Assembly: GCA_964016885.1 (NCBI GenBank)
Contig: OZ024743.1
Location: 91,140,001 to 91,204,000, forward strand
Direction of reading: 5' to 3'
Source: Eledone cirrhosa
Taxonomy: Eukaryota
Length of the DNA stretch: 64,000 bases
Part shown: in pieces, positions 22,270 to 51,800 of the stretch
Position numbering within the stretch: the stretch's first letter is position 1
Layout of the letters: every line of letters begins with the position of its first letter
Program-made: the position numbers and the translations under genes
Notes under the pieces: model-generated
The model's input: the letters and a program-made list of their open reading frames with translations, nothing else
Told to the model about the DNA's origin: nothing
The model's database searches: none

Positions 22270-22341
22270 GGTCTTCTGTGGAGTTGTAGCTCAGAGGTTT
22301 CCTGGGTGATTCAATGGTAGAGGCCCCACTCCTATTATGAA

Positions 22342-22385
<44 letters not shown>

Positions 22386-25300
22386 TCTAAAGGGTTTTCC
22401 CTAAGAATGAAAGGCAGGTTGTATGATGCCTGCATACGAACAGCAATGTTGCATGGCAGTGAGACCTGGGCATTGTGTGCAGAGGATATACGCAGACTAG
22501 AGAGGAACGAAGCTTGCCTGCTCCGCTGGATGTGTAATAGTAATATACGTGAACGGCAAAGCATAAGCGAACTAAGGAAAAAATTAGAAATAAGAGGGAT
22601 CAGGTGCTGTTTACTCGAGAGAAGGCTACGTTGGTATGGTCACGTGATGCGCATGAAAGACGACAGCTGTATAACAAAGTGCAGGGCAATAAAGATAGAC
22701 GGTAGCCACGGAGTAGGCAGACCCAGAAAAACCTGGGACGAGCTGATAAATTCTGACCTCACACATTTATACCTCTCCAAGACAATGTCACTGGACCGAG
22801 ACCTTTGGCGGTACTCAGTAATAGAGAAGACCCGCCTTACCTAAATACAAAGTAAAACCTACTACAGCCAGTAGGCATCTCTAACAAAATACACCCCCGT
22901 CCCACCACCCCCACCCCATCCACACCGCCCCTTCAATGTAAAGTTATGTTGGTGCCACAACATCCAGGCCGAAACAAATGAGATCGTGTAGGTGTCACGA
23001 CAAAAAACACACAGTCCACGCTGTAATGTGGCCGTGTAGGCAACACGGTAAAAACCTCCCAGCCCCACACTGTAAATGTGGTTGGTGCTAGGAAGGGCAT
23101 CCAGCTGTAGAAAACCCGCCAGGCAGTCCTATGCGAGCAAGACAATCACTCTTGCCTCAAGTGGGAAAATCCCCGTCCAAACCCATGCAAGCGTGGAACA
23201 TGGACGTTAAACGTTGATGATGATGATGAGGTCTTCTGTGGAGTTGTAGCTCAGAGGTTTCCTGGGTCATTCAATGGTAGAGGCCCCACACCTATTATGA
23301 ATATATATATATATATATTTATTTAAGTGAGGGTGCATGGCTTAGTAGTTAAAACATTGAGCATACAATCGTGAGGTTGTGGATTCCATTCTTGGACCAG
23401 ACTTTGCCATATGTTCTTAAGCAAGACATGTTATTTCACGTTGCTCCAGTTGACTCAGCTGTAAAAATGAGTTGTGACGTCACTGATGCTAAGCTGTATT
23501 GGCTATTGTCTTTCCCTTGGACAACATTGGTGGTGTGGAGAGGAGAGGCTGGTATGTATGGGTGACTGCTGGTCTTCCACAAACAAACCTTACCCAGACT
23601 TGTGCCTTGGAGGAGAACTCTCTAGGTGCAAATCCCATGGTCATTTGTGATCAAAAGGGTCTTTATTCTTTACTCTATATATATATATTATATTTTGGGA
23701 GGATCATGCTGCTAATAAAAATGCACTCACTTGTTAGGTTTCACTTAATTTAATGTAATTTCTCAATCTGTTAGTTTAATAACCGAATGGTTGTTTAATT
23801 GTTGTCATCAAAGCTCTTTCATCACACATTCTGTAACCTCCTCAGTGACTCATCATCACCGTTTTACGTCCGTTCTTCCACGCTAGCATGGGTTAAACGG
23901 GTTGTCCTGTTGTGGGCAGTATCTGGTCGGCTAACCATGCCTTGCTCATACAGGAACTGATTCTGGCTTGATTTCTACATCTGGATGCCCTTCCTAACAC
24001 CAACCTCATTTACAGTGAGTGGTGGGTGCTTTTTCGTGGCGCCTACACGTCCACTTTACAGTGTGGGCTGGGTGCTTTTTTGCCGTGGCACCTCCACGAC
24101 CACCTTGCGGCGGGGGGTGGGTGGGGGCATATTGTCTATATGCTTCAGCTTGTACCCATGGGAGGTCGGGTACTCTGTATTACTGCGTGACACCAGAGGT
24201 CACGGTCGTGTGTCATTGCCTTTGAGAGGTGTAATTGGGTAAGGTCGGCATTTATCACCTCATCCCAGGTCATCTTGGGTCCCCCCACTCCGCGGTTTCC
24301 ATCGACTTCTAGTGCTCTGCACCTTTTTATGCAGCTGTCATCCTTCATACGCATCACATGTCCATACCAGCGCAACCGCCTCTCCTGCACACAGCATTTG
24401 ATTCCTCTTATGCTCAGTCCCTCTCTCAATTCATTTATGCTTTGTCGTTCACGTATATTACTGTTACACATCCATCGGAGCATGCAGGCTTCATTTCTCT
24501 CTAATCTACGTAAGTCTTCCACCTTCAGCGCCCAGGTCTCACTGCCATGCAACATCGCTGTTCGGATACACGCATCATACAGTCTGCCTTTCATTCTGAG
24601 GGAGAAGCCTTTTGCAGCTAGCAGTGGTAGTAGTTCCCTAAACTTCTTCCATCCCGTTCTTACTCTAGTTATTGTACTTTCTGAACACCCACCTCCGCTG
24701 CTAATTCGGTCACCTAGGTAGCAGAAGCTGTCTACTGTTTCTACAGAGCCCTCCCAGAGATTGCTGGTACTTGTTTCCTGTGGCTGTTTGCTGCTTGCTG
24801 TCCCAGCACAGCTGCTGCATGTGAGGCCTACATTCTTAATTAAGCTTCCAGAGATCCCTCTACATCTCTTGTGTACCCATTGTTTGCATTTGGGGCAGAG
24901 AATGGAGTTCCTACCTACACCTTTCCTACATACTGAGCAAGGCCATTTCCCTGAGGGGATCTGGGTTCTGTTTTCTCGTCTACTTACAAGGACCTTAGTC
25001 TTTGTCATGTTGACTTTGAGACCCTTTCTTTCTAGTCCCTGCTTCCAAGTTTGGAATTTATTCTCTAGTTCTACCAGCTATAAGTGCGAGGTCATCAGCA
25101 TACAGGAGTTCCCATGGGCATCCGGTCTTAAACTCCTCCGTTATTGCCTGCAGGACTATGACGAACAGGAGGGGACTAAGAACAGAGCCCGGGTGGACCC
25201 CAACCTGTACGCTAAATTCCTCGCTATACTCATTGCTAATCCTAACTTTGCTGACTGCTCCCCTATACATGGCTTGTACCGCTTTCACAAGCCATTCATC

Positions 25301-27781: not shown

Positions 27782-30700
27782 AGTAGATATAAATCTGTTG
27801 AGCAAATATTTATTATTAGCACATATTAAAGTCTAAGCAAAGAAATTATTTGCTTAAGGAATTACACCAGTCCAGACTCCTGTTATTTTATAATATCTAT
27901 ATATATATATATCATCATCATCATTTTACGTCCGCTTTTTCCCTGCTTGCAAGGGTGGGACGGGAACTGATTCTGGCTTGATTTCTACAGCTGGATGCCC
28001 TTCCTAACACCAACCTCATTTACAGTGAGTGCTGGGTGCTTTTTTCCGTGGCGCCTACACGTCCACTTTGCAGTGGAATGATAGAGACCCCAGTCCTATC
28101 ATCTCATTTCTACAGCTGAGTAAACTGGAGCAATGTGAAATAAAGTGTCTTGCTCAAGGAAACAACACATCACCCGGTCTGAGAATTGAACTCACAACCT
28201 TTCGATTGCAAGGCCAATGCTCTAACCACTATATATATATATACAGGGTGCGAACGATAGTTGTTCGCAAGATTACTGTCTATGAAAAAATAACACAGTA
28301 GTTTTATTTTTTAAGATTTATTTATCAAACTTGGGTCAGTTTGTCTTCATGACTTGTTCTTTCGATCTCACTCGATAAACCCACCATTGGCTTTGATGAC
28401 GGCCTCGGAACCGGCTACAGGCCTTTGACACTGTCCCCCGACTTAGGCTCCTAAAGGCACTTGTGATCCTGGCCTTCAGATCGTCTTTCGTATTGCAGCT
28501 AGATCTGTTGGTGTCTCGTTCCACTGCGCCCCACACAAAGAAGTCAGGCGAGCTGGGAGGCCAGATGTCAGGTGAAGTGTGGTCAACGAAGTTCTCTGAC
28601 AGCCAGGCTTGGGTCTTTCGGCTGGTATGGCAGGGCACTGAGTCTTGCTGCCACACGTACGGCCTACCTGCAGCTACCTTGTCGATCCAGGGCTTTACTA
28701 CCTCGCTCAGAACGCAGATGTAGCCATCGGTGTTCAGCTTGAGGCCCTCAGGGGAGAAGTGAGGTGACATGACGACACCTAAGACCAGTGTTGTCGCTGG
28801 AAACTGTCTGCATAACTCTGGGCACGTCTTTAGATAAGACAGCAAGCCACCTGTTGTTCTGGGAGTTGATCTACTGGTCTTGGCAGAAGTTTTTCTCGTT
28901 GGAGAAAAACCACAGCATGTCTGGCTCCAGTGGGTGTTTCAACTTGTTGATCAGCTTCTTTGCGTGCTTCAGTCGCTTTTCTTGCATCGCCTTTGACAGA
29001 AATTGTGCTTTCCTCATCTTGTATGAAACGTAGCGAATGTCTTCATGTACCACCAGCCTAATGAGCTTTTCATCCACACCTTTCTCCCTTGCAATGGCAC
29101 GCATCGACTTCCTAGGTTCATTGTTGATGATATCCTGAACTTCAGCGACGAACTCGGGCTTTTCTGAAGGCGTCAGATCGTCGATCATGTGTTTTCCTCT
29201 CTGATGTTGCTTCGTAGTCGAATCCTGAATCTTCCAATTCCTTTCTGACCTTTTCCACCATTCTCCTGCTGACGCTGAGAGAGTCTGAAATTTCCTTATT
29301 TGTCCGCCCGGCGCGGATTCCAAGAAGAACTCCGTGTCTCTTCCAAAAAATTTGGAGGTTCAAAATTATTCATAATCAATTATTCTGAAAATAAATAATG
29401 GAAATATAGTCACTGTTTTTATGAAGACAAGAGTGACAACGGAAGTAAAAAAAATTTGCATAAAATTATCAGTTGAAAATTGCGAACAAATATTGTCCGC
29501 ACCCTGTATATATGTGTGTGTGTGTATACATATGTATATGTGTATTTATATATTTTCTTTTCTTTTTAGTTCCTACATTTTCATTGGAAAATGGGGATGT
29601 TATTAAAACTGCTTTGAAGGAACATTCAACAACCTCAGGTGAGGTAGCATCCTGACTGTTAACCCATTTGATACCATGATATAAAACTCATCATCATATT
29701 TATGTCTGTTTTGTTCCATGCTTACATTGGTTGGAAGTCCCTTCCAGCACACTTTTTCTTTACACATTGTGTTCCTTTTTTATCATTGTGGTGCTCAGTG
29801 CTTTAAGATTAACTCAACATTTCTGCCCAGGTTTTCCTTGGCCATCCTATACTGCAGTTTCCTTCCACTGGTACTTCTTCACCCATCAATCATCATTCCA
29901 TTACAAGTCTATACCAGCTGTCTTTTTTTCTTTTTTTAGTACACTACATTTGATTCCTCTTATAGTTTTTCTCTCAGTCCATCCATGTTCATCATCATCA
30001 TCATCATCATCAACGTTTAACGTCCGTGTTCCACGCTTGCATGGGTTTGGACGAGGGTAGTCCCACTTGAGGCAAGAGTGATTGTCTTGCTCGCATAGGA
30101 CTGTCTGGCAGGTTTTCTACAGTTGGATGCCCTTCCTAACACCAACCACATTTACAGTGTGGGTCTGGGAGGTTTTTACCGTGTTGCCTACACGGCCACA
30201 TTACAGCGTGGACTGTGTGTTTTTTTGTCGTGACACCTACACGATCTCATTTGTTTCGGCCTGGATGGGGTGGGGGTGGTGGGACGGGTGTATTTTGTTA
30301 GAGATGCCTACTGGCTGTAGTAGGTTTTACTATGTATTTAGGTAAGGCGGGTCTTCTCTGTTACTGAGTACCGCCAAAGGTCTCGGTCCAGTGACATTGT
30401 CTTGGAGAGGTGTAAGTGTGTGAGGTCGGAGTTTATCAGCTCGTCCCAGGTTTTTCTAGGTCTGCCTATTCCGTGGCTACCGTCTATCTTTATTGCCCTG
30501 CACTTTGTTATACAGCTATCGACTTTCATGCGCATCACGTGTCCATACCAACGTAGCCTTCTCTCGAGTAAACAACATCTGATCCCTCTTATTTCTAATT
30601 TTTTCCTTAGTTCGTTTATGCTTTGCCATTCACGTATATTACTGTTACACATCCAGCGGAGCATGCAAGCTTCGTTCCTCTCTAGTCTGCATATATCCTC

Positions 30701-33700
30701 TGCACACAATGCCCAGGTCTCACTGCCATGCAACATTGCTGTTTGTATGCAGGCATCGTACAACCTGCCTTTCATTTTTAGGGAGAACCCTTTAGCAGCT
30801 AATAGTGGTATAAGCTCTCTGAACTTTTTCCAACCAGTTCTGACTCTAGCTACTGTACTTTCAGAGCACCCTCCCCCACTGCTGATTTTATCGCCCAGGT
30901 AACGGAAGCTGTCCACTATTTCTATAGAACCCTCTGCGCAATTGAAAGAGCTAGTATTTTGCGGGCACTTGCTGCTACTTATTGCACCAGAGCACCGGCC
31001 ACATGTAAAATCTATGTTCTTAGTTAGCTTACCTGTGATCCCACTACATCTTTTATGCACCCATACTTTGCATTTAGGACATAAAATGGAGTTTCTACCT
31101 ACGCCTTTCCTACACACTGAGCATGACCATTTCCCAGAAGGGACCGCCGCCTTATTTTCTTTCCTACAAACTAGAACTTTAGTCTTAGCCAGGTTAATTT
31201 TAAGTCCTTTTGATTCTAGGCCGTGCTTCCATGTTTGGAATTTCTTCTCTAGCTCGGCCATTGATTCAGCTATGAGTGTCAAGTCGTCTGCGTATAGGAG
31301 TTCCCATGGGCAGCCGGTCTTGAACTCCTCTGTTATAGCCTGAAGGGCAATAATAAATAGTAGGGGGCTGAGAACAGAGCCCTGATGGACGCCAACTTTT
31401 ACGCTAAACTCTTCACTATATTCGTTGTTAATTCTAACCTTGCTGACTGTTTCTTTATACATGGCTTGTATAGCTCTCACAAGCTATTCGTCAACACCTA
31501 GTTTTCTAAGAGCCCACCAGATAATGGAACGGGGGGACTCTGTCGAAGGCTTTCTCCAAGTCGACAAAAGCTAAGTAGAGGGGTTTACCTTTAGCTAGGT
31601 ACTTCTCCTGTAGTTGTCGTACAATGAAAAGAGCGTCTGTGGTACTTTTGCCTGACACAAACCCGAACTGCATTTCATCTAGGTCAATTCTCTCTCTGAT
31701 TAGTTGCGCTATTACTTTTTCCGTGACCTTCATGTTAATCTTGCATATTAACATCACACTGTTTTTCTGAAAACTTCCATCATAATTTTATGTAAGAACC
31801 TCTAAAGGTTTTCCCTAAACACCACCTTTATAAACTGATAGTTATTTTACTAAATCCCTTCAAATTTTTGATTATTTTCTGAATTATTTGAATATCATTG
31901 GCAGTGATACGCCTAAAACTGAAGGTGAAAAATTGGTCAGAATATGAACCTTGCGACGAACTCCATCGATTTTCGGGGTGTTTAGGGCCTGGGCAAAATT
32001 CAAACGTGCCCAGTAAGGCCATCTGGATGTAAAATATTGTCTTAACCCTTTAGCATTTAAACCGGCCATATCCGGCCAGAATTCTCTCACCTATTTCTGT
32101 TCAAACCGGCCACTCATATCGATGTTAGGGTAATGTTCTCAAAATAAATAACAAAATCTTGTAGATTCGATATTATGTGAGGCAAAGCCTTTACTGGGAA
32201 AATACAATAGTAAATATAGCGTAATGTAAATGCTAAAGGGTTGAAACAATCCATCCAATCCATGCAAGCCTGGAAAAGTTTGTCAAAATAATGTTGATGG
32301 TAATTGCTAACCATGTTTTGATTGATCTATTGATTCTTTTGTTTACAATGTTATTGATGAAAGTTTGAAATAATTTTATTTCATTTATTTTTTAAACAGC
32401 TGATGAAAAGTCATCAGAGACAGTAGAGGAAGCTGATGAGGTGGAGACTGTTACCCAAGGAAAAGTAGTTGCTGTGTCACAGGAGGTAACAGGAATAATC
32501 AGCCAAGAGACAACTATGGCAGTTGAACAGGAGTCATCTAATGAATCTTCTCAATTAAATTCTGAGACAGAAAAGGTTGACATAACAGAATACAATGTGG
32601 CTTACTTCAGGAACATTGTGGTTTCTCAGACTGAAGTATTGAACAATCTCTCTGATGTTTGGGAGACAATTGTACCCAGCCTCACTGAGGAAGGTAAGGA
32701 TATATTAAGATAAGAGATACTGCAATGTACTTCTATATAGTTGGTTATATTTTCTTTTCATCATCATCTTCATCACTGTTTAATGTTCGTTTTTCCATGT
32801 TAGCATAGGTTAGACAAGTTGTCCAAATGTGAGCCAAGCCAGATCAGATGACTGTCTTGCTCACACCGGATCGATGTTGGTTTGGTTTCTACTGCTGGAT
32901 GCCCTTCCTAATGCCAGCCACATTTATCAAACTTTTAATGCTACTACTAACACTTTATTTTGTTCTCGTAAACTCCCTAAGATTGGTGATCTGCACTATA
33001 AACCCAGTACACGCTGTAAAGTGGTTGGTGATAGGAAGGGCATCCAGCTGTAGAAAGCTTGCCAGACAAAGGGTTGGGAGGACCCATCAATCGTGTCAAG
33101 GACATGGCAGCCTGCCTAATGCTGGTAATCTACTTGATAAAATCACCAGTCATCATCATCATCATCATACGTTGAAAATTGGTTGGTGATAGGAAGGGCA
33201 TCCAGCTGTAGAAAGCTTGCCAAACAAGGGGTTGGGAGGACAACCTCTTCAGTGATGGTGCCATGATAACATACTCTCGGTAGAACATGGAACTATATGT
33301 AAGCGAGCTGTGATCCATCAGCCTCTCTGAGAGTTCAGTAGGCCCATTTCAGTACTGACTCGGTTTATGAAAATCTGCCCAACCCTTGCTAGCAGGGAAG
33401 GTGGACATTAAATGATGATATATAACTAAAACCATATATGCCTTAACTAGTATGTAAACAAATCTAAACCAAACCTATGCTATCCATGAACTCATCAAGA
33501 GTAAATCATAATTCTACAACCAACCCTACCCACCATACCATATTGCATCAGTAAAAATTAAATTTAAACATGTCCTTCGGAACCTTACCCTAGCCATCTC
33601 TGTCAAACAACAACCAACCTATTCAATATATAATCTCGTGTTAATAATGTGACCTTTCCTGAAACGCTAAACTTTTAACATCCTTTAATGATTTAACGGA

Positions 33701-36700
33701 AAATATCTAAAACTGAGTGTGTTAATTCAAATGTTTATAGTATCTTTACTGGTGGACAGATCATTGTAGAAATTTGAAGTATTAAAATAATTACTTTAAT
33801 TTTTAATGTGATGCAGTCACAGTGCTTTTGTATACTTTTCAATAATGCCTTGCTTATGCAGTTTCATGTGGTACAGGACGTTAAGAGTTAAATAAAAAGA
33901 GGATGAAGGAGTTATTCTCTTGTATAATATGACCCCATGCTACAAGACTGCTAGACTTGTTTGGTTGAGTTTGTTTGTGGCAAATTTGTATGGTTATTTT
34001 CTTTAAATAATTACCAATGCTTTAAGGTGATTGGAACTCATCTTCAGAATGTCTAGCTGTATGATTAGATTGTTGTTTTAACTTTAGGTCAACTCTGATT
34101 AGATGCATGATAAGAGACATCTATGACTTTCATGCCTTAACCTTTTAGCATTTAAACTAGCCATAACCAGCTGCTCATACTTATATTTAAAATTAATATC
34201 AAAATCTCGAAGATTCGATATTATGTGAGATAAAGTGTTTACTGTGAAAATACAATAGTAAATATAGAGTAATGTAAATGATAAAGGGTTAATCCTTTCA
34301 TTGTTATGTTTCTAATGGAAGACACTGCTTATGATTTTTAAATCATTTTGAAAATCAAGAATTCAGAGGGATTTGGTAATGTAACTAACTTAAAATGTCT
34401 TTTATATAATTATGATGGAAGGTTTTTAGATAAATATAAACACTATAAAACAAACAGTTTTGTATCATAGAACCACAGACAGTTTGCTATCTATCAAAAG
34501 TGTTAAGTTTACCGTGGGCTATATTATCTAATGTGTCAACCTAATTTTAAGTTTATATGTAGTTTAACTCTTGAACATCATGTATGATATTAGCAAAACA
34601 TTTTTGGAAAGTACAAAACAGCTCTAAGAATGCAACTTATTAAAAATTAACATCTTTACTATAATACCATAAAGACATTTTCACAAGAATCTGTCCAATA
34701 AAAATGCTATAAGCATTTGAATTAAAAAAACATTTTCAGATATTTTCTGCTAAATATTAAGAATCGACCACACAAGTACCTTTGAAATCAATTTAGATTT
34801 TGAATATGTCTTGTCATTGCCAATAATGACTTTTATATAATTTCAGTTCAAGGAGAAGTTCGGTCAGTTATCGGTCAAGCTAAACTATTGATTTCACAAC
34901 GTTTTGATCAGTTTATTGGTCTGGTTGACAACTGTGAGTTTAATACTGGTGAGAAGGAGACAACATGTGGAGATCTACAAGGTTTTTGGGATATGGTAGA
35001 TTTTCAGGTAAGTTTTTGTTGAATATTTAAACCTGTTGGATATCATTTGCCAGTATGTATGTGAAAGCATGTGGCTTAGTGGTTAGGGTGTCAGACATAT
35101 AATCCTAAGTTGTTTGATTTCTTGTTCAGGTGACATTTTGTGTTCTTAGCATGACACTTCATTTCACATTACTTTTCTTGCTAAACCTGCATAGATGTGA
35201 GTTGTAACAAACAGACAGTGTGGGAGTGCATTTCAGTTCCATTTTTCTTCTCTTCCTCAGTATTGTAATTTGGTAAGAAATTGATAGAAATGTTAGTGCT
35301 GGGTGAAATGTCTTGTATTTTTCCAGCTCTTTCTGATCTGTGTTATTTTTGCCTTTCATCATTCTGGGTTAGATAAAACACCAGTTTAGGGTGGTGGTTT
35401 GGCAGAATTAAGTGCTGTGTGTTATATGATCCGGCTCTATTTGTTCTTCCAAATCCCTCTGGGGATTACTTCTGTGCTCATAGCAAGTATCAACTCTGCT
35501 GCAAGCATTTGAACCAGATTACTGGTTTGAGAATATAACTCTGCCTCCTTCTCACCAGAGCCCCCCACCCCCTCTCTCTCTCCCTCCATCCCTTTCTCTC
35601 CCACTCACCCACCCCTCTCTCTCCCCTTTCTCTTACTTTCACTGTTTAATCTTGATTCAGTTTATTCCTTTACTTCTTATTGCAAATTTTTATTTCTTGT
35701 ATTTGTGTAGTTAAAAGTATGTTTATCTTTGTTAGGTGTCAGATGTGAAGAAAAAGTTTGCTGATTTACAGAAACTGAAAGACAACAATTGGCAGGCAGA
35801 AGTTGTAGCCAGCAGCAAACCTGTCAAGAAAATAAGGAAAGTAAAGTCTGAGTCATCCAAAGTTTCCAAAATGGAAGGGAAATCCAAATTTTCCAAGTTT
35901 CTGGCACAGAAGAAGAAAGCTGCAAATAATTCACCTGCAGTAGATCCTGAAAGGGAAACAGACAGTAAAGAACAAGTTAAAGTATTTGATGGCCATTTCT
36001 TCAAAGTGGAGAGTCCAGTTAAATCACCAAAGCCACATTGTTCTGGTAAGATTTGCCTGTTGTTGTTGTTGTTGTTCAGTAAAACTAAGTTGGTAGAGCA
36101 TCCAACTAAATGTTTGATAATATTTAGTTTGTTTTCAAATTTTTGAATTAAACTGGCTGTATCTGGCCAGAATTCTCTAACGTCTTTCTATTCAGACTGG
36201 CTGTAACCAGCTGCTTGTACTTATGTTAAGGTATTGTTCTCAAAATAAATAATATCAAAATCTCATAGATTTGGTATTATGTGAGTTAAAGCCTTTACCA
36301 TGAAAATACAATTGTAAATATAGTAATGCAAAGGTTAAATCCTACCAGGATGGATAAAACAACAACCATACATGTACTAGCATTGATTTAAGGATTGTAT
36401 AATTTATTTGGAGGATTGGCAGGATTAAGGTTGATCTAATACCTAGTATACAGCAGCAGTTTGTTCTCTCTCTTCTGCTGTTTTGGTCTAATCTCTTCTG
36501 TTTTTTGCATCCCTCATTGATTCATTAGGTTCCATGGTACAGAATGTTTCTTGAGTTTTACATTCATCCCCATCATCATTATTTAACCCTTTACCATTTA
36601 CATTACTCTATATTTACTATTATATTTTCATGGTTAACACTTGATCTCACATAATATCGAATCTACGAGATTTTGATATTGCAGCTGGTTATGGCCAGCT

Positions 36701-39700
36701 TGAATAGAAAGAGGTGAGAGAATTCTGGCCGGATACGGCTGGTTTAAATGCTAAAGGGTTAATGTCTGTTTTCCTTGTTAGCAATTGTTGTTTAAATAAA
36801 TTTGTTTGAATTTTTCTTGAATTTTAGATTCATCATCACCATTATCATTTATTGTCCATTTTCCTTGCTAGCAAGAATTGTTTCTTTAAACTTGTTTGAA
36901 TTGTCATATTTTCAGACTCTGCCCCTAGTCCAGTTGTTAAACCAGTTTCCACTGACACAACCAAGGAGCAATCAGATGCTGTTGTTATTGCTGATTGTCA
37001 TGAGAAAGACAAGCTAGTTGATAAAACATCTGAAACAGAGTTAAAAGATTTGAATGATGAAGAAGCAGTCGAGCCAGTTGGTGCTGAGAGGTCTAGTGAT
37101 TCCCCAATGGTAACACCGTTTATTACAAGACCTAGCTATGTTCCTGCCATTCCCAGTCCTCTCCTTCAGGATGTAACACCTAGAAGGAGGAGAGTATCCA
37201 CCAAACGCCATTCGGTTCTCTTCAGTGAAATGACAAAAACACCAGACAGTTCTCAGCCAGTACCATCTACACCTGTTGAAGATGTTGGAGATGTTTCGAC
37301 ATCTGTTCCCAAGTCAGCACGAAGGTTTGTGTTTGACAGTTTATTTATTTGTTTATTTTTGGATTATGTTTGTTGTGTCGGAAATAACAAGGAGAGCAAT
37401 GTCGCATGAGTGGAAGGACAAAACACGGGGGCTCTCTTTCCTTGTGGGGCTAGATAGCGTGTGTGTGTGGGGGGAGGGGGGTGTCAATGAGCTTGTGTGA
37501 AACCTGGGATTTCTGGCCAGAGTGTGGAATATCCAGGACAGTGGGACAGTTATTCAAGACCTGAGAGTAAGACATTTATTGCCTACTTTTTCTGTTCCAG
37601 AAGTAGCAGACGTTTTCAAAGAACCAGCAGGAGGATTTCTGCAGTTCAACCTGTTGCCAAGACTCCCAGGAAAGGTATGTACTATTTTATTAATTGATCT
37701 TAAATTATATTTAACTGCTAACATCCTGTAATTATTTAACAAAACATTTCTATAAAAGAAGAAACAGGTTTGTTAATTTAAATGTTTATAGTATCTTTAC
37801 TGGTGGACAGATTGTTGTGAAAATTTACAGTTTTAAAGACTTTAATTTTTAAGTAGCCATGCAGTTAAATGCTGTTTTGTGCTTTTCAAGAATATCTTGC
37901 TTATGTGGCTTCATTGGGTACAGGACATTAAGAGTTAATGATTTGCTTAACATATTTATTTATTATATTAGTATTATTTAGTTTAGTGAATGTGTGTGGC
38001 TTAGTGGTTAGGGTGTTTTGGCTTATGATTGTAAGGTTGTTATTTTGATGCTGAGATCAGCTGGTGCTGACACCTCAATAAGTTGCACCCAGTACACTCT
38101 GTAAAGTGGTAGTGCTGGTGTCTTAATACATATACTTTGTACGCTCTGCAAAGGGGTGGTGCTTATGCCACAATAAAATGTACCTGGTATACACTGCAAA
38201 GAGGTAATGGCAGTGGAACGGTAAAATAAACCTAGTATATGCTGTAAAGTGGTTGGCATATGGCAGGGCAACCAACTCTAGAAATCATGCCAAAATAAAA
38301 CATATGCAAGAGATGTTATCTGATCCTGTTTAGTTTCAAACTTTGACAACCTGTTCAATCTATAAAAACGGTTGTCAAATGATGACTATGATGATGAGGG
38401 GTTAAAATTATTTTAACCCCTCCCTGCCCAACTTGTTTTGATTGATCTATTGATTCTTTTGTTTACAATGTTATTGATGAAAGTTTGAAATAATTTTATT
38501 TCATTTATTTTTTAAACAGCTGATGAAAAGTCATCAGAGACAGTAGAGGAAGCTGATGAGGAGACAGAGGTGGAGACTGTTACCCAAGAAGAAGTAGTTG
38601 CTGTGCCACAGGAGGTAACAGGAATAATCAGCCAAGAGACAACTATGGCAGTTGAACAGGAGTCATCTAATGAATCTTCTCAATTAAATTCTGAGACAGA
38701 AAAGGTTGACATAACAGAATACAATGTGGCTTACTTCAGGAACATTGTGGTTTCTCAGACTGAAGTATTGAACAATCTCTCTGATGTTTGGGAGACAATT
38801 GTACCCAGCCTCACTGAGGAAGGTAAGGATATATTAAGAGGTATTGTAATATTCTTTTAAGTTTTTGTTTATAAAGAAACTATTTTCCGAATCACTGAGC
38901 AGATTTAAGTTTTGAAAATATTTTAGTTTATTTTGTAACTTGTTTGTGTTTTGATTCCACCATGTCTTGTCATTACCAATAATGACTTTTATATAATTTC
39001 AGTTCAAGGAGAAGTTCGGTCAGTTATCGGTCAAGCTAAACTATTGATTTCACAACGCTTTGATCAGTTTATTCGTCTGGTTGACAACTGTGAGTTTAAT
39101 ACTGGTGAGAAGGAGACAACATGTGGAGATCTACAAGGCTTTTGGGATATGGTAGATTTCCAGGTAAGTCTTTGTTGAATATTTATCATCTCCAAATGGT
39201 TTTCTGCAGTTTAACCCTTTAGCATTTACATTACTCTATATTTATATTTTCATGGTAAAGGCTTTACCTCATATAATATCGAACCTATGAGATTTTGATA
39301 TTTATTTTGAAGGCAATATCTTAACATTAGTATGAGTGGCCGGTTACAGCCAGTTTGAATAGAAAGAGGTGAGGGAATTCTGTCCAGATACAACCGGTTT
39401 AAATGTTAAAGGGTTAAGGTGGTCGACTGACAGAATTGTTATAATGTCTGACATTATAACTATGTGCCTTGTAGCATATGATCATGTACTTTTTGTTCTG
39501 CTTCCAAATCCCTCTATGGTCTACTTGGGTGCTCCTATCAGCATCTGCTTTGTTGCAAGTATTTGGGACAGGACTCTGGTTTGAAAATGCCTGCTTCTTT
39601 CCCACCATTTTATCTTGGAATACAAAGTTAAAATGGTTTATATTTAGCATTCTTGTTTTATTTCTTGTATTTGTGTAGTTAAAAGTATGTTTATCTTTGT

Positions 39701-42700
39701 TAGGTGTCAGATGTGAAGAAAAAGTTTGCTGATTTACAGAAACTGAAAGACAACAATTGGCAGGCAGAAGTTGTAGCCAGCAGCAAACCTGTCAAGAAAA
39801 TAAGGAAAGTAAAGCCTGGGGCATCCAAAGTTTCCAAAATGGAAGGGAAATCTAAATTTTCCCAGTTTCTGACACAGAAGAAGAAAGCTGCAAATAATTC
39901 ACCTGCAGTAGATCCTGAAAAGGAAACAGACAGTGAAGAACAAGTTAAAGTATTTGATGGCCATTTCTTCAAAGTGGAGAGTCCAGTTAGATCACCAAAG
40001 CCACATTGTTCTGGTAAGATTTGCCTGTTGTTGTTGTTGTTCAGTAAGACTAAGCGGGTAGAGCATCCAACTAAATGTTTGATAATATTTAGCTTGATCT
40101 CTCAAATTTCTGAGTTTAAATCCCACCAGGATGGATAAAACAACAATCATATATGTACTAGCATTGCACTGTCATTTGACCTGGCTTGTCTCACAACTGT
40201 ACAGCTCATCTAACCCATGCTAGTGTGGAAAATGGATGTTAAACGGTGATGATAATGATTTTAACTCCTTTCTTATGAACAAAGAATCAAAATCTTAATG
40301 GCAAGAAAACTATTTATTTTGTTGCTGGAGCACAGACGTTTTAGTGGTCAAAATATCTCATCAGAACTTAACCCTTTTGTTGTCATATTTTTGATGAAAG
40401 ACACTATGGTTTTCAAATAATTTTGAAAATAATCAAGACAGTTTAGTAATAAAACTTTCTCATTAAGCTGCTGTAGATTGGCAGTTTCGGTAGTGCGTCA
40501 AATACCATGCTTTGCAGTATAGTTATGGCCCTTTACGTTCTGGGTTCAAATTCCGCCAAGATTAACTTTGCCTTTTATCCTTACGGGGTCAATAAAATAA
40601 AGCACGAGTAATGCACTGGGGTAATTGCTGGCCTTGTTCCAAAAGTAGAAATAATTATTAAGCTGGTGTTTGGAACATAACTTGAGTTTTTACATAAAAT
40701 TATGATAGGTTTTTAGATAAATATAAGCATTTTATAATAAACGGTTTTATATTGTAAACCCAGGGGCGTTATCAAAAGAGTTAAGGACTTAAAGAGAAAA
40801 GTATTAATATCCAAGGAAGTTACTGACAGTTTGTGTTTTATCTTTTAGTTAAATTTGAATTGTCTGTTTTTCTTTCTCAATAAGAGTTATTTATTTAAAT
40901 TTGTTTGAATTGTCATATTTTCAGACTCTGCCCCTAGTCCAGTTGTTAAACCAGTTTCCACTGACACAACCAAGGAGCAATCAGATGCTGTTGTTATTGC
41001 TGATTGTCATGAGAAAGACAAGCTAGATGATAAAACATCTGAAACAGAGTTAAAAGATTTGAATGATGAAGAAGCAGTCGAGCCAGTTGGTGCTGAGAGG
41101 TCTAGTGATTCCCCAATGGTAACACCGTTTATTACAAGACATAGCTATGTTCCTGCCATTCCCAGTCCTCTCCTTCAGGATGTAACACCTAGAAGGAGGA
41201 GAGTATCCACCAAACGCTATTCGGTTCTCTTCAGTGAAATGACAAAAACACCAGACAGTTCTCAGCCAGTACCATCTACACCTGTTGAAGATGTTGGAGA
41301 TGTTTCGACATCTGTTCCCAAGTCAGCACCAAGGTTTGTGTTTGACAGTTTATTTATTTATTTATTTTTGGATTATGTTTGTTGTGTCGGAAATAACAAG
41401 GAGAGCAATGTCGCATGAGTGGAAGGACAAAACACGGGGGCTCTCTTTCCTTGTGGGGCTAGATAGCGTGTGTGTGTGTGTGGGGAGGGGGGTGTCAATG
41501 AGCTTGTGTGAAACCTGGGATTTCTGGCCAGAGTGTGGAATATCCAGGACAGTGGGACAGTTATTCAAGACCTGAGAGTAAGACATTTATTGCCTACTTT
41601 TTCTGTTCCAGAAGTAGCAGACGTTCTCAAAGAACCAGCAGGAGGATTTCTGCAGTTCAACCTGTTGCCAAGACTCCCAGGAAAGGTATGTACTATTTTA
41701 TTAATTGATCTTAAATTATATTTAACTGCTAACATCCTGTAATTATTTAACAAAACATTTCTATAAAAGAAGAAACAGGTTTGTTAATTTAAATGTTTAT
41801 AGTATCTTTACTGGTGGACAGATTGTTGTGAAAATTTACAGTTTTAAAGACTTTAATTTTTAAGTAGCCATGCAGTTAAATGCTGTTTTGTGCTTTTCAA
41901 GAATATCTTGCTTATGTGGCTTCATTGGGTACAGGACATTAAGAGTTAATAATTTGCTTAACATATTTATTTATTATATTAGTATTATTTAGTTTAGTGA
42001 ATGTGTGTGGCTTAGTGGTTAGGGTGTTTTGGCTTATGATTGTAAGGTTGTTATTTTGATGCTGAGATCAGCTGGTGCTGACACCTCAATAAGTTGCACC
42101 CAGTACACTCTGTAAAGTGGTAGTGCTGGTGTCTTAATACATACACTTTGTACGCTCTGCAAAGGGGTGGTGCTTATGCCACAATAAAATGTACCTGGTA
42201 TACACTGCAAAGAGGTAATGCCAGTGGAACGGTAAAATAAACCTAGTATATGCTGTAAAGTGGTTGGCATATGGCAGGGCAACCAACTCTAGAAATCATG
42301 CCAAAATAAAACATATGCAAGAGATGTTATCTGATCCTGTTTAGTTTCAAACTTTGACAACCTGTTCAATCTATACAAACATGAAAAAACGGTTGTCAAA
42401 TGATGACTATGATGATGATTGATTTCAATAAAATTATTTTAACCCCTCCCTGCCCAATTTGTTTTGATTGATCTATTGATTCTTTTGTTTACAATGTTAT
42501 TGATGAAAGTTGAAATAATTTATTCTACGAGATTTTGATATTGCAGCTGGTTATGGCCAGCTTGAATAGAAAGAGGTGAGAGAATTCTGGCCGGATACGG
42601 CTGGTTTAAATGCTAAAGGGTTAATGTCTGTTTTCCTTGTTAGCAATTGTTGCTTAAATAAATTTGTTTGAATTTTTCTTGAATTTTAGATTCATCATCA

Positions 42701-45700
42701 CCATTATCATTTATTGTCCATTTTCCTTGCTAGCAAGAATTGTTTCTTTAAACTTGTTTGAATTGTCATATTTTCAGACTCTGCCCCTAGTCCAGTTGTT
42801 AAACCAGTTTCCACTGACACAACCAAGGAGCAATCAGATGCTGTTGTTATTGCTGATTGTCATGAGAAAGACAAGCTAGATGATAAAACATCTGAAACAG
42901 AGTTAAAAGATTTGAATGATGAAGAAGCAGTCGAGCCAGTTGGTGCTGAGAGGTCTAGTGATTCCCCAATGGTAACACCGTTTATTACAAGACCTAGCTA
43001 TGTTCCTGCCATTCCCAGTCCTCTCCTTCAGGATGTAACACCTAGAAGGAGGAGAGTATCCACCAAACGCCATTCAGTTCTCTTCAGTGAAATGACAAAA
43101 ACACCAGACAGTTCTCGGCCAGTACCATCTACACCTGTTGAAGATGTTGGAGATGTTTCGACATCTGTTCCCAAGTCAGCACCAAGGTTTGTGTTTGACA
43201 GTTTATTTATTTGTTTGTGGCTAGACTCACTTGTATTGAGTCATACTCAGTCCTTATACATTTCCTTGAACCATGGAATCAGCAGATTTCAAAGAAACAA
43301 ACAAGAAAATATTTTAACCATTCCATAACTATATTTCAAATGAAGGTCACTGATCATAAATTTCAAATTATTTTGAAAATGATCAAGAATTTGGAGCAGT
43401 TTAGTAATAAAAATAACTTATTATTAAGCTGGTGTTTGGGACATCAAGTTTTTACATAAAATTAGATATATATAAACAATTTAAAACCTTTTCAATTATA
43501 TTTTAATGAAAGTCATTGCCTATAATTTTCAAATATTTTTTTAAATCATCATCATCATCATCTTCGTTTAACATCCATTTTCCACGCTAGCATGGGTTAG
43601 ACGGGAGTTGTCCCACTTGGGGCAAGGCTGGTCGGGTGACCGTGTCTCGCTCATGTAGGACTATCTGGCAGGTTTTCTACGGCTGGATGCCCTTCCTAAC
43701 ACCAATGCCCTAAATAATCAATAATTTTCTCATTATTCAGCTCATGTTTTGAACCAAACTTAGCCAAAGTTCTCAGATAAAATTATGATGAAAGGTTTCT
43801 AGATAGATGTAAATATTTTAGCATAAGGTGATATGTATATTAGAACCAGGGTTGGTTTCAGGAAGTTTGGTATCAAAGGAGTTAAAAAAAAATGGTGCTA
43901 GATTTAATTGCCTATTTTTTCTGTTTCTCCAGCAGCAGAAGACGATCTCAACGAATCAGCCGGAGGGTTTCTGCAGTTGAACCAGTTGTCAAGACTCTCA
44001 GGAAAGGTATGTACTATTCTAGTAATCAAAGTTCACTTTGCAATTAACTGGTTTCGGTTTTGATTCCATTAGTATATAGCTACTAGGCATAATGTCTTCT
44101 ATATATAAATTTGAGCGACTTCCATCTGACCTTCCGTCACACACTAGAGATGACTGAGGAAGAAAGGGGTGATGAGAAACTACAGAAAACAGCACCTAAC
44201 ATTCACTGATGCAGGCTGCTACCATTGTTACTATGACTACCTCATACTACTCTTCTCTCTTTATGTCTGATGCAGGCTGCTACCACACATACACATACGT
44301 GTCAGCGTGTTGAAAAAAATCCTAGTTTGAAAATAGCTTGAAATATTGAGGGCAATTATGATTGAGTCAACCCTTGGTTTCTGTGCTCCTGTCTGATAAT
44401 AGTCCATCCAATAAAAGGACTACAAGAATGTGTGTACTATAAAATTAGTGAGGGGATAGGCTGGTTTATATGTATGGAAGATCTTAGGTTTAACTCATAT
44501 TTCTCATGAAAGACACTGCCTATGATTTTCATTTTGAAAATAAAGAAATTGAAGAGATTTGATATTATAACAAAGTTTTTTGTAACCTTCCATCATAATT
44601 TTATGTAAGAACTTTTGTTAAGTTATATTCAAAACATGATCTTAATAATGGTTTCTGATTTAGACACAAGGCCAATAATTTTTAGGTAGGGGAAATCAAT
44701 TAAATTGACTTTGTCAGGATGAAAGGAAAAGCTAACCTTCAGCGGGATTTGAACTCAGACCGTATAGGGTCATAACTCTATGCCACAAAGCATGTTGTCC
44801 GACACTCTACCGATACTGCCAATCCACTGCCCTAAACCTGATCTTATTAATGAGAATGTTATATTACTAAATTCCTCAAAATTATAGGTAGTGTCTTTCA
44901 TTAAAAATATAATCATGAAATGGATAAATTTATATTTATCTAAAAATCTTCCATCATAATTTATCTAAGACATTTTGTTAATGTATGTTCAAAACAGGTT
45001 TATGAGAAAGTTCTATTACTAAATCCCCCCTAATTCTTGACTATTTTCGAAATTATGTGAACATTCTAGATTTTCATTAAAAATCTAGTCATCAAAGGGT
45101 AATGGGTACTGTGTGTTAAATTTTATTTAGATTCTACAAATACAACTGATGTAGCAGTAGAACAACTGATTGATTTGTCTGAGAATAGTATCCTTAAGGT
45201 TGAAGACTCTTCTGAGAAAAAGACCCCATCAAACAAAAGAAGATCCAGGGCTAAGTGTAAGTAAAATTAATTTTCTCTGTCTAAAGTCTGTCTTAAGCCA
45301 GAAGACTTGTTAGGTTGGTGCTTATCCTGGTTTCATGGCTTGAAGCAACTGAGACACCCCACTGAACAGGATGCCAGTCCATCGAAGGGTTAAACCCCCA
45401 GCTATTGCTGGTACTCATTTTCAGCTGAGTATATTGAAGCAAGCCCAGGAATGGAACCCAATTTTCTCTATGGAATGATTAATTCATTCGATATAGTTAT
45501 TGTCTAATCCTTATTTAACTGGTGCTTATTTTATCAACCATGAAAGTATGAAAGGAAAAATTGCCCAACCCCTGCTAGCAGTGAAAACAGCCGTTAAAAT
45601 GATAATGATGATGAATGTAAAGATATTTTTGCTAAATACTGCAGGGTATTTGGCCTGGCATTGTACCATCACAGCCACATTCATCATTTTACATCTGCTT

Positions 45701-48700
45701 TTCCATTCTGGCATGGATTAGACAGTTTGTTACAGAACAAGACGGTTCTTAACTCTTAATGTACCAAATGAAACCACATTTGAATGACATCTTTGGAAAG
45801 TCCAAAACATTACCATGGCTTCTTCAGATTAACTGCAAATGTTCATAACAATCTGTCCACTAGTAAAGATATTGTAAACATTTGAATTAACTAACCCATT
45901 TTAATATATTATAGGATATTAAGAGTTAAATGAAGTTAGTCCTCCTTAAAAGGCCAGAGGCCAGATTTCATGCACATTCCAGTTTTGACATGGTTTTTAC
46001 AACTTGATGCCATTCCTAACGCCAGCTTCTTTACAGAGTGTAATTGATGCAAGTTTATCATGGCTTAGTGGTTAGAGTATTGGGTTCACAATCATGTCAT
46101 GTTCAATTCCTGAACCAGAAGTCATTTTCTGTTCTTGAACAAGACACTTCATTTCACATTGCTTTTCACAGAAGACTTGCTTCCAATGTGCACAGGTTGA
46201 AGCATACATATACTATGCTGCCCGCCAAGTGCCAGTCCACACTAGGAGCGGTTGTTTTGGTGTCATGACAAAAAGCACCCAGTACACTGTAAATAGAGTT
46301 GGCATTTGGAAGGGCATCCAACCGTAGAAACCAAGCCCAAATCAGTTCTATATGAGCAAGACATGGTCTACTGGCCTGGCTTGTATCTCAACGGGACAAC
46401 TCGTCTAACCCATGCTAGCGTGGAAAATGGTCGGGCTTTAAATGGTGCTGCTAATGATGATAGAACTGGGACCCATATCATTAAGAGGAACCTGCGAGAT
46501 GCTATCTTGTTGGGGGCTAGATAAACCAGATTCAAGTTCAACTGCTTTACACAATAATTTCCTTTTTTGTCTTTTGAAATAGTTATGCCAGAAGTTGGAA
46601 GTGAGAAACGCCGTTCAGTGCGGCTTGCCAGATTATCTGTGTTCCATATTGACAGATCTCATGCTGAACTTGGCAACCATCCAGATATGAACCTCATAGA
46701 CTTTCAAACTCCCATTCCTTCTGAGAGGTAAGCTAATTTTATGAATTTGTGTGTTTCTCCCTTTTTCTCTTTTCCTCAGTTTATCTCTATTAATATATAT
46801 GTGTAATACACCATTCTTCTATGTGTGTGTGTGTGTATTATCATCATCATCATCATTTTACGTCTCTGCTTTTGTTTAAATAACAGACACTGCTCGGTTT
46901 GCTTTCCCCTATTCTCCCTTCTTACCTTTTCTACGTCTCAGTGTCCTTCTTTGTCCACATTTTCGACAACAGTCCTTATTCTCTTGTTTTATTATTTCTC
47001 TCCTTTGGCTAAGCATGTGCACACTCTATATTTGTGAGAGAGAGGGATGTAAAATCCTGACTACGGCGCCAAGTGGTTTTGGCTTGTGTGTTCAGCAAGC
47101 CTTTTCACGGCTGTAGTAATATTACTACACCTTTAAAAACCCTTGCTAAGCACCCAAGCTGAAACCGCTTGGTGCCGCAGTCAGGATTTTACATATTGCT
47201 CTACCCACTCTGCATCTCCCCATGCATTGAGTAGTCCCATGATTAGTGGTCTCCTTGGTCTCAGCACTGCAGACTCTCTCTTTATATATATAAATAAAGT
47301 CACAGGAAGAATCCATAGAAGTGGTTGATAGCTTTGTTATCTAGGCAATTTAATTAGCAGTTGAGGCAAGAATTCTGAGAGCATAATAGATAGAATAAGG
47401 ATAAGATGGAAGAAGTTTAGAGAACTACTCCCACTGTTTACTACAACAGGCTGACTGTGTGTGCAGTGTGATGCTGCATGGTAGTGAAACATGGGCAGTG
47501 ACAGCAGAAGACATGCAGAGAAGTGAAGCAGCCATGCTTCATTGGATGTGCAATGTAAATGTGAGAGACGCCACAGTAGAGGTAGACCAGTAAAAAAGAC
47601 GCCACAGTAGAGGTAGTCCAAGAAAGACCTGGTGAGAGCTGACCTCAAATTGCTGCGACTCACAAAGGAGATGAAAAAGGAACACAGCATGTGGAGAGAT
47701 GTGCTGAGAAGGATCCGTCCAACCCATTGCAATCGTGGAAAAACAGACGTAAAAACGATGATGATGATAATGATATATCAACCCTATGTCTAAGGCCGTA
47801 TGTCCTCAGAACTAGTCTAAATACTAAAATTCCAACTCATTATTGACACAGTCTGTTTGGGCTGACAACAGCTAGCCACATGTTTCATGGATCAGTGGAA
47901 AGGAACCATGTGGCAATGAACATTTCTTCTATATTTGTCAGCCTGCACCTCTGACAAATGGTATTGCTCCAACTTTGTGGATGAGTGGTAGTGGTGGTGG
48001 TGGTAAGAATTGAGGCAGGTCCAACTATTCATTTTCAAATAAACTTTGGGTGCTGGTACCGCAGTCGTGTCTGGTGTGACAAGCAAAAAAAACCTCCAGT
48101 CCACCCTGTAAGGTTGTTGCACATGTGCCATAAGAAAGCACTCATTGCTCTCTGTAAGGTGGTGTCACGACAAAAAATAAGCATGTAATTCTCCCTGTAT
48201 AGTGGTTGTCATCATCACCATCATCTTCGTTTAACATCCGGTGTCATTACTTGTCTATACACACACACACTGACAGGTTGGGGGTTTGCATCTCATTTAC
48301 ATTAGGTTTCACATTCTACTAAGTGCCATTTTATCATGGCACCAGCACTAGAGAGGTTCTCATATATATAAATAATTGTTATATCTGTTTTTTTCCATGC
48401 TGGCATGAGTTGGCCATAACCTTTTGACCGTGTTCTATAGCTGATGTCAATCTATATCTATTTTTAAGTATGATATATAATGTTGATCTTCATCAAACTG
48501 CTAAATTGCAGGAAGTGAGGGAGGGAGGGGGGGGGGGTTATTCGTGTCCAAAGAGTACTTGTGATCCTTTAGATGCTATTGTCTGAAGTGTCTACCTCAC
48601 AAGTCCATATAGAAGAGGGGAAACTTTGAATAACAATGAATTATCAACATTGTTTAATGTCCATTTTTTCTGTTAGGAAGGGTTAGACTTGTTATCATCA

Positions 48701-48843: not shown

Positions 48844-51800
48844 ATGTATGTACATACACACACAGGATGTACTCTACCAACTTGTTGAAGACACTTAAGT
48901 CCAAGTGGCTGTTAAGTTTCACATTCTTCCCATTAGTTATTAAGAAACAATGCTGTTGTTCTTCTTGTCAATACTTTAACCTGACCTCTATTATTGTTTT
49001 TGTTGTTTTAAGTATTTTCTATTTCCTAGAATAGACTGGTTATTAACCCTTTATCATTCACATTATTTTATATATACTATTATATTTTAATGGTAAAGGC
49101 TTTACCTCATGTAATTATCTCACATAATATCGAATCTATGAGATTTTGAAAGTATTCATTTTGAAAACAATACCTTAACATCAGATTAAGCGACCAGTTA
49201 CAGCCGGTTTGAACACTAGAGATCTTATAATCTTCTTATTTGTCTACTTATTCCTGAGAGGGTCGTTGGAACAGAGCCCTCAAACACTCCTTCCAGCGGG
49301 TCCTGTCAGATGCAACCATCTCCAACTGATCTGACTGGGCTTGCAGCCAGTTAGTTTTGCCTGTAAAATCTGTCCAGTGATTCTTTCCTGAGACATTCTA
49401 ACCACATGCCTGTTGTACCGGAGCTGTGATCTCTCAATTCGAGGAAGTAGCAGCTCTACCTGGAGTGACTCTGTTAACTCCGAGCTACGCAGTTTATCAA
49501 GTAACGTTACTCCAAAGACTCTATTTCAGCTGCTTGTATTCGCAATCATATTCTTTATTTAAAGATTTTATAATGTCTTTTCTATTTCCAAGAATAGACT
49601 GGTTGTTAATCATTACAGTTTTTTCTAATTCCTACAACAGGCAGGTTAACCCATAGATCTTGTTTGCACTTCCAAAAGGTTGGTAATTAGTGGCCAAGAG
49701 CTCTGTGGCATGATGGTTAAATGTTTTCATCTGACATATGAGAGCTGCATGGTTCAATTCCCTGTAGTCATCTCTCCAATTTTTCTATGTCCAAGGCTAT
49801 ATTTTACCCACGTTATTCAACTATTATTTATAGTTATTAATTGTTATAGTTATCTACATTGTGGCAACTATATCTCCAAATTTAGTATTCCCCAATTCTT
49901 CCTTAGTTCATCAACTCTTGTTTACACACAGATACACACACAGAGGGAGCGAGATTTGTTTTTTAGAATAGGTACACAGTATGTCTGTGTGTCATACAAA
50001 GTTAGTGACAGGAAGGGTATTGGGCCATAAAACACTCAAAACGAGCCATCCGGCCCATGCCAACATGGTTATAATAATGAAAAACTAATTATATACTGTA
50101 TAAGCACATCCATACAAAAACAAACGGGGGGGCGGGGGGTTAAAAATACACCACTATCAGCTGCCTCTATACAGGCTATTAACATATATGTGATGTGGTG
50201 AATTGTAAGATACTCTTGGGTCCCAAATAATAGGTGAGACAGGGAGGGGGAAGTCGGTAATTTTTTTAGGCTTTCTCCATTGAATTTTTTAAATCCCAGA
50301 ATTAGTCATTTAGTTTACATATTGAGACCCCAAACCATCCTATTTCATAACGTATATTTCTAGTAATGTACTTTTTATGTCATGTATAATTTTTTTAATG
50401 TATAAATAAAATGAATTGTCATAGGAATGCTACCACTTAAAATAAAATTTTGCTGCAGATTATTCGAGACCCGAGAGTAATCTGAAGTGAAATGACCCCA
50501 GATACAGGGATAGATGTTAAATTTCATACTTGTCAAACTCATATTAGAGAACAAAAAAAATATGAACATCAATTAGATATTTTACCATCTTGCAATGATT
50601 TAGCAGAAAATGTCCTCCAACTCCCCCCCCCCCCCCAAAAAAAAAAAATTAACCATTATGCCACAGACCTCTTGGCCACTAATTACCAGCCATTTGGAAG
50701 TGCAAACAAGATCAACAGGTTAATAATCAGTGTATTCTAGGAAATAGAAAAGACAAAATTTAAGGGTTAATATCCAGTTTATTGTTGAATTCGCAGTATT
50801 ATAATATATAATAAAGTCTTTAATTTTTGTGATGCAATCATAGTGTTTTGTACTTTTAAGAATGTCTTACTAATGTTGTTTCATGTAATACAGATTGTTA
50901 AGTTAACCCTTTAGCATTTACATTACTTTATATTTACTATTATATTTTCATGGTAAAGGCTTTATCTCACATAATATTGAATCTATGAGATTTTGATATC
51001 TATTTTGAGAACAATACCTTAACATAAGTATGCGTGTCCGGTTACATCCAGTTTGAATAGAAAGAGGTGAGAATTCTGGCTGGATGTGGCTGGTTTAAAT
51101 GCTAAAGGGTTAATAGTAACTTTATTAGTAGACAGGTTGTGAAAAATTGCAGTATTATAATAAAGTCTTTAATGTGATGCAATTATAGTGCTGTTTTGTA
51201 GTTTTGAAGAATGTCTTGCTAATGTTGTTTCATGTGATACAGATAAAGTTAATCTTTCTGTTAATTACCTGCTCTTGTGTTTTTTTATAGGAAAAAGGGG
51301 AAAAGATCAAAGTCTGTTGTTTTTGAAGATTCCCTGAAAGAGGAGGAAAGCAACTTGAGTGAGTGTAAGTTTTATTGTTATTGTTGTTACAGGAAGGGTG
51401 CTGGATTTGTAGTTTCAGGGGAGTGATGAGTAGAATATTTCAGTATTTTCTTAAGACTTTCTGAGTTCAAATCCTGTAAAATGAAGTTTGCCTTTCATCC
51501 TCCTGAGGTTGATATAATTGACGTTCCCCAAATTGCTGGTCTTGTGCTAATGTTAGAAATAATAGTAATTATTATTATTGCTGGGAGTGGAGGGAGGTGC
51601 ACCTTTGCTTCTCTCCCTTCTGGAGGTTCCTAAAAATAAATATGTCAAGTACTAGGGTTAATTTAATCAGCTGTGTGCTCCTTCCTAAAATTGTTGTGGC
51701 AGTATCGGTAGAGGGTCGGACGCCATGCTTTCCAGCATAGTTACGTCCCTTTACGATCTGAGTTCAAATCCCGCCGAGGTTGACTTTGCCTTTCATCCTT

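Follow-up and report, generated by a model that had tools for sequence, protein, structure and literature searches.

The DLGAP5 locus of Eledone cirrhosa

We analyzed a 64,000-nt stretch of the Eledone cirrhosa genome (GCA_964016885.1, contig OZ024743.1, positions 91,140,001-91,204,000, forward strand; hereafter the window), which carries all but the first coding exon of a DLGAP5 gene, the gene for HURP, with the exons for its GKAP domain repeated. The GKAP domain is the part common to HURP, Drosophila Mars and worm DLGR-1 (PMC11364988). Twelve exon copies occupy 32400-44006 in the order F1-G1-H1-I1-J1-F2-G2-H2-I2-J2-I3-J3. All are preceded by AG and followed by GT (12 of 12), and the frame continuing from the neighboring exon runs through each without stop codon or frameshift. 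This order, the splice sites and the open frames had been claimed in a first-pass annotation of the same DNA and were all found in place. The exon phases that we computed (1-1 for F, 1-0 for G, 0-1 for H, 1-2 for I and 2-1 for J) likewise match its claim that the modules F, G+H and I+J each begin and end in phase 1.

All exons lie on the plus strand. The first unit comprises F1 (32400-32693), for an acidic linker and the first helix of a three-helix bundle (bundle 1); G1 (34847-35007), with the GKAP core; H1 (35736-36045), for the end of bundle 1 and a basic linker; I1 (36916-37324), rich in Ser, Thr and Pro; and J1 (37601-37674), a diverged copy of J. At the junction of the units, an 86-nt intron end (38434-38519) is identical at 86 of 86 positions to the intron end before F1. 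The second unit follows with F2 (38520-38822), G2 (39003-39163), which holds the second GKAP core, H2 (39704-40013), I2 (40925-41333) and J2 (41612-41685). Beyond a breakpoint at 42521-42524, to which no strand is assigned, lie I3 (42778-43186) and J3 (43933-44006), the latter with a tandem CAG-CAG acceptor.

Eleven single-copy exons in the window complete the frame. Upstream are exon A (9069-9232), the second coding exon, in the N-terminal single-copy region and placed by tblastn with Octopus vulgaris DLGAP5; B (10974-11586), a Thr/Ala-rich linker; C (13602-13830); D (19474-20115), which contains an acidic tandem repeat; E1 (20853-20926), matching O. vulgaris DLGAP5 at 22 of 24 residues; and E2 (29570-29638), the last single-copy exon ahead of the duplication, with a phase-1 donor. 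Downstream are K (45131-45256), L (46583-46727), M (51291-51364), N (56855-56961) and O (57662-57706), which runs to the stop codon. From exon A to this stop, the all-exon model encodes 1757 amino acids without interruption. The first coding exon (256 nt, phase 1; L003:3066-3321) is located ~7 kb before the window begins and shares 71% identity with residues 1-86 of O. vulgaris DLGAP5; including it, the full model has 1843 amino acids. In human HURP the region of exon A belongs to an N-terminus reported to bind the microtubule lattice (PMC11471760).

Membership in DLGAP5/HURP is indicated by Pfam GKAP (PF03359), whose cut-off was passed separately by G1 (38.6 bits) and G2 (39.4 bits), and by the named top homologs, which are DLGAP5 or DLGAP5 models. 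Furthermore, PDB 8X9P (HURP) scored 59 bits against 29 for DLGAP1 (4R0Y), the N-terminus is conserved, and tblastn matches to annotated cephalopod DLGAP5 are colinear along the gene. A search of the 3.0-Gb assembly recovered G twice, H twice and I three times, every match being at the HURP locus, and found no further copies of G, H or I elsewhere.

Two GKAP cores and their counterparts in other proteins

A hidden Markov model of the GKAP core, built from 110 homologs, detected two full cores in the 1843-residue model (244 and 240 bits), beginning at residues 747 and 1166, i.e. 419 amino acids apart, and one in a model with a single unit. The doubled core maps onto the tubulin-binding three-helix bundle of human HURP (PDB 8X9P), with exon G2 matching chain C of that structure at E=1.6e-15. 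In the human protein, residues 428-534 are reported to form this bundle and to bind soluble tubulin (beta-tubulin) 1:1, with R468, E480, Q484, M512 and Q516 needed for binding; in full-length HURP, tubulin binding is reported to raise rescue and lower catastrophe (PMC11471760). We rejected the 'decelerating motif' for Kif18A (human residues 285-400, PMC11549086) as the doubled part, since the bundle maps to 428-534.

By residue mapping, all five contact positions fall within exon G. R468, Q484, M512 and Q516 are kept in both copies, which leaves four of five contacts identical to human, and the E480 position is Gln in both. Conservation was counted on 191 distinct homologous segments from 285 proteins, and 54 of them likewise have Gln at this position. 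The two 108-residue bundles differ at one residue, the equivalent of Gly487, which exon G2 changes to Arg; helix spacing would put this position on the tubulin-facing side.

Each exon I encodes seven Ser-Pro or Thr-Pro (SP/TP) sites, J1 and J2 one each and J3 none, so that an I-J block has 7-8. In total the predicted protein has 40 SP/TP sites against 21 in the single-unit model, and 10 full cyclin-dependent kinase (CDK) sites against 5. The first-pass annotation had proposed a HURP of more than 1750 amino acids with two GKAP domains and three blocks bearing SP/TP sites; the DNA-level model agrees in length, in GKAP number and in having three Ser/Pro/Arg-rich blocks, with the one correction that J3 itself lacks an SP/TP site. 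Each I-J block also contains two matches to what we take to be the Aurora A-type motif. The C-terminal region of human HURP is reported to have four potential Aurora A sites (PMC10361663).

The segment order of the Eledone model is shared by DLGAP5 of O. bimaculoides, O. sinensis, O. vulgaris, Argonauta hians and Sepia pharaonis, but these five proteins have one GKAP stretch each. For exon G, identity reaches 89% with three Octopus species, 87% with Argonauta and 79% with Sepia; for exon H it is 63-72% in the four octopods. Human HURP (846 amino acids) also has the order N-terminal region, GKAP bundle and Ser/Pro-rich tail, with a single bundle that binds tubulin 1:1, in contrast to the two bundles and three I-J blocks of the 1843-residue model. 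We found no related species with the F-J duplication among the homologs searched. Octopus and Argonauta DLGAP5 instead lengthen other linkers with unrelated short peptide repeats. In Eledone, an acidic 10-residue tandem repeat of ~11 copies in exon D (19530-19890) is not in O. vulgaris, and the linkers of cephalopod HURP thus appear to expand repeatedly.

The view that DLGAP5 proteins normally carry one GKAP domain held for the five other cephalopods and for most homologs, and failed for models from Lingula and a prawn with two to four. In the first homolog set, 140 of 143 proteins have the core and three have two, all isoforms of Lingula anatina LOC106169658 (XP_013404677.1 and isoforms X1 and X3). 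Here the same GKAP bundle and Ser/Pro/Arg unit is doubled, with units 87-88% alike over 350 amino acids in a split alignment and the contact residues kept in both; a blastp self-comparison missed this repeat. Lingula has a second, partial record, located on a different scaffold, which extends into the beginning of unit 2. The Lingula gene differs from that of Eledone in that it is a RefSeq predicted model from a brachiopod, with two units only, 360 amino acids apart, and Gly487 in both. Its doubling is probably independent because the molluscs in between are single-core.

Among the best 150 of 693 representatives, below which weaker multi-domain proteins could rank, four proteins had more than one stretch. 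Pfam found four and three GKAP domains in Macrobrachium nipponense XP_064108094.1 and XP_064083104.1, respectively; two other candidates were set aside, with a partial extra piece or a short internal repeat and one Pfam stretch each. The Macrobrachium proteins consist of compact ~220-residue repeats without an evident HURP N-terminus or Ser/Pro block, and the R468 position is Leu in all four domains of XP_064108094.1. A third M. nipponense protein appears likewise to consist of tandem GKAP domains, three or four in number, and to lack an evident HURP N-terminus. Together, the Lingula and prawn models make the doubled architecture rare, not unique. No report of a multi-GKAP or cephalopod HURP was found by title or abstract start, and supplements of genome papers could list the gene.

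History of the repeated exons

Aligned, F1 and F2 match at 291 positions and mismatch at 3, and F2 has an insertion of 9 nt (38558-38566) that preserves the frame; the copies are identical at 157 of 161 positions in G, 301 of 310 in H and 405 of 409 in each pair of I exons. J1 and J2 agree at 73 of 74 positions, J1 and J3 at 61 of 74. The proportion of synonymous differences (pS) is 0.015 in exons F-I (4 of 258 sites; 1.5%) versus 0.28 between J1 and J3 (5 of 18 sites; 28%) (Fisher p=7e-5). Ahead of F, G and H, the units stay near-identical for 86, 41 and 48 nt, respectively, and behind them for 17-103 nt, beyond which the similarity collapses; most duplicated splice sites sit in flanks nearly identical to those of copy 1. 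Two of the flank runs are identical throughout (86 of 86 and 48 of 48 bases); at 13% divergence, an 86-nt identical run has a probability below 1e-5. The colinear intron remnants between the units are 71%, 83%, 87% and 93% alike, the F-G introns of units 1 and 2 measure 2153 and 180 nt, respectively, and the repeat insertions differ from one unit to the other. The longest genome match of the 71% remnant is still the paralogous intron, but the remnant is only moderate evidence for old age because half of it is a dispersed repeat.

The gap in pS between F-I and J1/J3, together with intron remnants at 71-93%, points to gene conversion of the exons, and patches of near-identity beside deep divergence run along the units, as gene conversion would leave them. 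We infer that F-J is an old tandem duplication whose exons were later homogenized by exon-centered gene conversion. A known likeness is found in the Argiope MaSp2 silk genes, where repeat units within one gene are reported to be kept alike by homogenization and conversion (PMC9779670). Those genes encode a structural protein and their introns are homogenized too, whereas in Eledone the repeated part encodes a folded binding domain and identity ends 17-103 nt outside F-H. The original J exon is probably J3, the closest J to orthologs (15 of 24 residues, versus 13 for J1, in O. bimaculoides); its tandem acceptor fits a one-residue variation at the corresponding junction in Octopus isoforms.

The third I-J set, at ~1% substitutions, is by this measure young. 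Between 36916-38496 and 40925-42521 we counted 14 substitutions and 4 indels over 1.58 kb, and the segment 36662-37354 recurs at 42524-43216 with 99% identity. At the breakpoint (42521/42524), the copy of the J1-F2 intron breaks off ~23 nt before the F acceptor, which is thereby lost; the sequence that follows corresponds to 36662 and beyond, and the joint shows ~2 nt of microhomology. We propose that F-J was duplicated in tandem long ago. The introns would since have drifted apart and received separate repeat insertions, while conversion would have held exons F-I and short flanks near-identical but bypassed the 74 nt of exon J. At a much more recent date, 1.85 kb of unit 1 would have been copied into unit 2 at exon I, and this one copying could explain I2-J2-I3 in a single step. 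We rejected an RNA-templated duplication, as the copying included intron flanks and the introns of unit 2 have sequence of their own, and also a purely recent one, as J1 and J3 diverge at 28% of synonymous sites and one intron remnant is only 71% alike.

Further features of the window lie outside the repeated exons. At 20318-20375, the last 30 nt of exon D and its donor are copied ~230 nt downstream, after an AT/GT microsatellite; use of an internal AG would give a 24-nt micro-exon that creates a stop, and with no pyrimidine tract the copy is probably inert. The E1-E2 intron contains a minisatellite (21050-22390) of ~100-130-nt units split by variable (AT)n tracts and interrupted by a long interspersed nuclear element (LINE) fragment at 22387-23229. 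This fragment and three others (1912-3567, 29993-31632 and 52644-53651) are 5'-truncated copies of one young family, 93-96% alike and with reverse-transcriptase-like frames, which we take to be LINE-like. The same intron holds, at 28339-29369 on the minus strand, broken frames that presumably resemble a Tc1/mariner-type transposase. Exon M (51291-51364), outside the duplicated part, encodes a KSVVF motif, to which KSVAF corresponds in position in Octopus and Sepia; we presume that KSVVF fits the PP1-docking RVxF consensus. Just downstream of the HURP gene, the minus strand at 59376-59500 looks by eye like a tRNA-Ile gene or a tRNA-derived repeat.

Probable use of the copies and its meaning for HURP

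Judged from the sequence, the locus holds a real, lineage-restricted internal duplication of DLGAP5. Our favored explanation, to which we give a probability of roughly 0.55, is that this octopod HURP has all copies spliced into an 1843-residue protein predicted to bind two tubulin dimers. Such a molecule would carry two tubulins with one microtubule-binding N-terminus and about twice the CDK-type sites, and copy 2 may be the weaker tubulin binder owing to its Gly-to-Arg change. Inside the 108-residue bundle the copies show one amino-acid-changing and three silent differences, versus 16 and 1 outside it (Fisher p=0.012; bundle against neutrality, p=0.03), and this deficit of amino-acid changes suggests that the folded part of both copies is under constraint. 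Where the copies of F, G and H differ, the ortholog residue is found at six positions in copy 2 and at three in copy 1; with derived changes on both copies, neither would be decaying alone.

Several points weigh against this explanation. The bundle test comprises four differences, with a boundary set after looking, and over F-I the changes since homogenization (16 amino-acid-changing versus 4 silent) stand at the neutral ratio. The open frame is weak evidence, as 23 random substitutions would leave it stop-free 36% of the time, and conversion from a working copy could keep a silent one intact. The Gly487 position is Gly in 184 of 191 segments and Arg in none, so the Arg of copy 2 may be damage. 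With only 14 substitutions and 4 indels, the third I-J set could be a polymorphism of one haplotype. No proteins of the host species were present among the homologs listed. Exon G1 had 313 matches to longer proteins; among the 120 listed, none came from E. cirrhosa and the best identity was 89%. The protein search with exon H1 gave five matches at 63-72%, none from this species; for the read-through frame of H2, 0 of 14 candidates was a transcript or read-derived fragment of E. cirrhosa.

Alternatively, the copies may be real and spliced alternatively, with transcripts skipping phase-1 modules and one- and two-bundle proteins mixed, a reading we consider unlikely. There are 182 phase-matched paths from E2 to K, each donor has identical competing acceptors downstream, and the O. 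sinensis gene has at least 31 annotated isoforms. However, a single F-J set already gives 8 phase-matched paths, 45 of the 120 possible exon blocks of the HURP gene (37.5%) are phase-symmetric anyway, and F-J is constant in 23 of 23 cephalopod ortholog entries. These entries are annotations and include 15 of the 31 O. sinensis cluster members (the other 16 fall outside them); with the exception of one residue, length differences among these members are confined to the part upstream of the bundle. The same figures speak against the combinatorial cassette system suggested in the first-pass annotation. We rejected phase symmetry as a sign of design, given the 37.5% of blocks that share it; more plausibly, it was what permitted the duplications to persist, with phases that appear inherited. 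Some module skipping is possible, since inverted repeats in the introns flank in-frame blocks and could loop out F1-G1-H1 (76% over 209 nt) or G1-H1 (93% over 98 nt). The copies do not resemble mutually exclusive exons, being five-exon blocks that can be used jointly in frame, and exons F-J are not alternative in the listed cephalopod entries. Every intron has at least 180 nt (the shortest 180 nt), a length at which steric mutual exclusion is not expected. Moreover, the copies encode almost the same protein, so switching would gain little.

It is more doubtful still that the duplication is real but idle, with one F-J set used and the others skipped or neutral and kept intact by conversion. Such idleness would fit the overall equality of nonsynonymous and synonymous divergence since homogenization and the Arg of copy 2 at a nearly invariant Gly, and the mild effects of HURP loss reported in mice (PMC11471760) and worms (PMC11364988) suggest that constraint may be loose. 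Yet both copies have acquired derived changes, the detected repeat insertions of unit 2 are intronic, the bundle shows a deficit of amino-acid changes, and no mechanism is evident by which five exons in a row, all with intact sites, would be skipped. An assembly artifact in part or in whole, whether from two haplotypes falsely duplicated or from the collapse of an array with more 4-kb units, is very unlikely: the I-J-intron block is repeated with allele-like similarity (~1% substitutions; 14 in 1.58 kb) and the 4.0-kb unit is present ~1.4 times, as in a collapsed tandem array, but allele-level likeness is absent in F-H, new junctions occur where J meets F and at the 42521/42524 breakpoint, the window is free of N on a 379-Mb contig with no other copy in the assembly, and a mis-joined haplotype is improbable for F-J because the units, unlike alleles, have largely different introns (F-G 180 versus 2153 nt, different insertions, remnants 71-93% alike).

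None of this amounts to a novel type of splicing system, and animal genes commonly contain internal exon duplications. The locus offers a readable case of exon-centered homogenization in one gene, with the unconverted small exon J as an internal clock. A report of 2024 describes the HURP GKAP core as a 1:1 tubulin-binding domain that helps to set rescue frequency and spindle size, and proposes that HURP acts like CLASP (PMC11471760). The two-bundle HURP favored here would have a functional analogy in the TOG arrays of XMAP215 and CLASP, which combine several tubulin-binding domains with a lattice-binding region; TOG domains differ in their HEAT solenoid fold and bind another tubulin surface, and no exon scanned with Pfam matched the TOG family. 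A natural two-bundle HURP, with its likely Lingula parallel, would be a ready means of asking whether tubulin valency adjusts this activity, as in TOG arrays. More speculatively, and with the odds against it, HURP may have turned repeatedly from a one-tubulin into a multi-tubulin carrier, with independent doubling of the bundle and phosphosite unit in an octopod and a brachiopod giving TOG-array-like proteins of another fold, and with the octopod copies starting to diverge (Gly versus Arg next to the tubulin patch) into a strong and a weak site. If true, the strong and weak sites of the octopod HURP could capture and hand over tubulin in turn.

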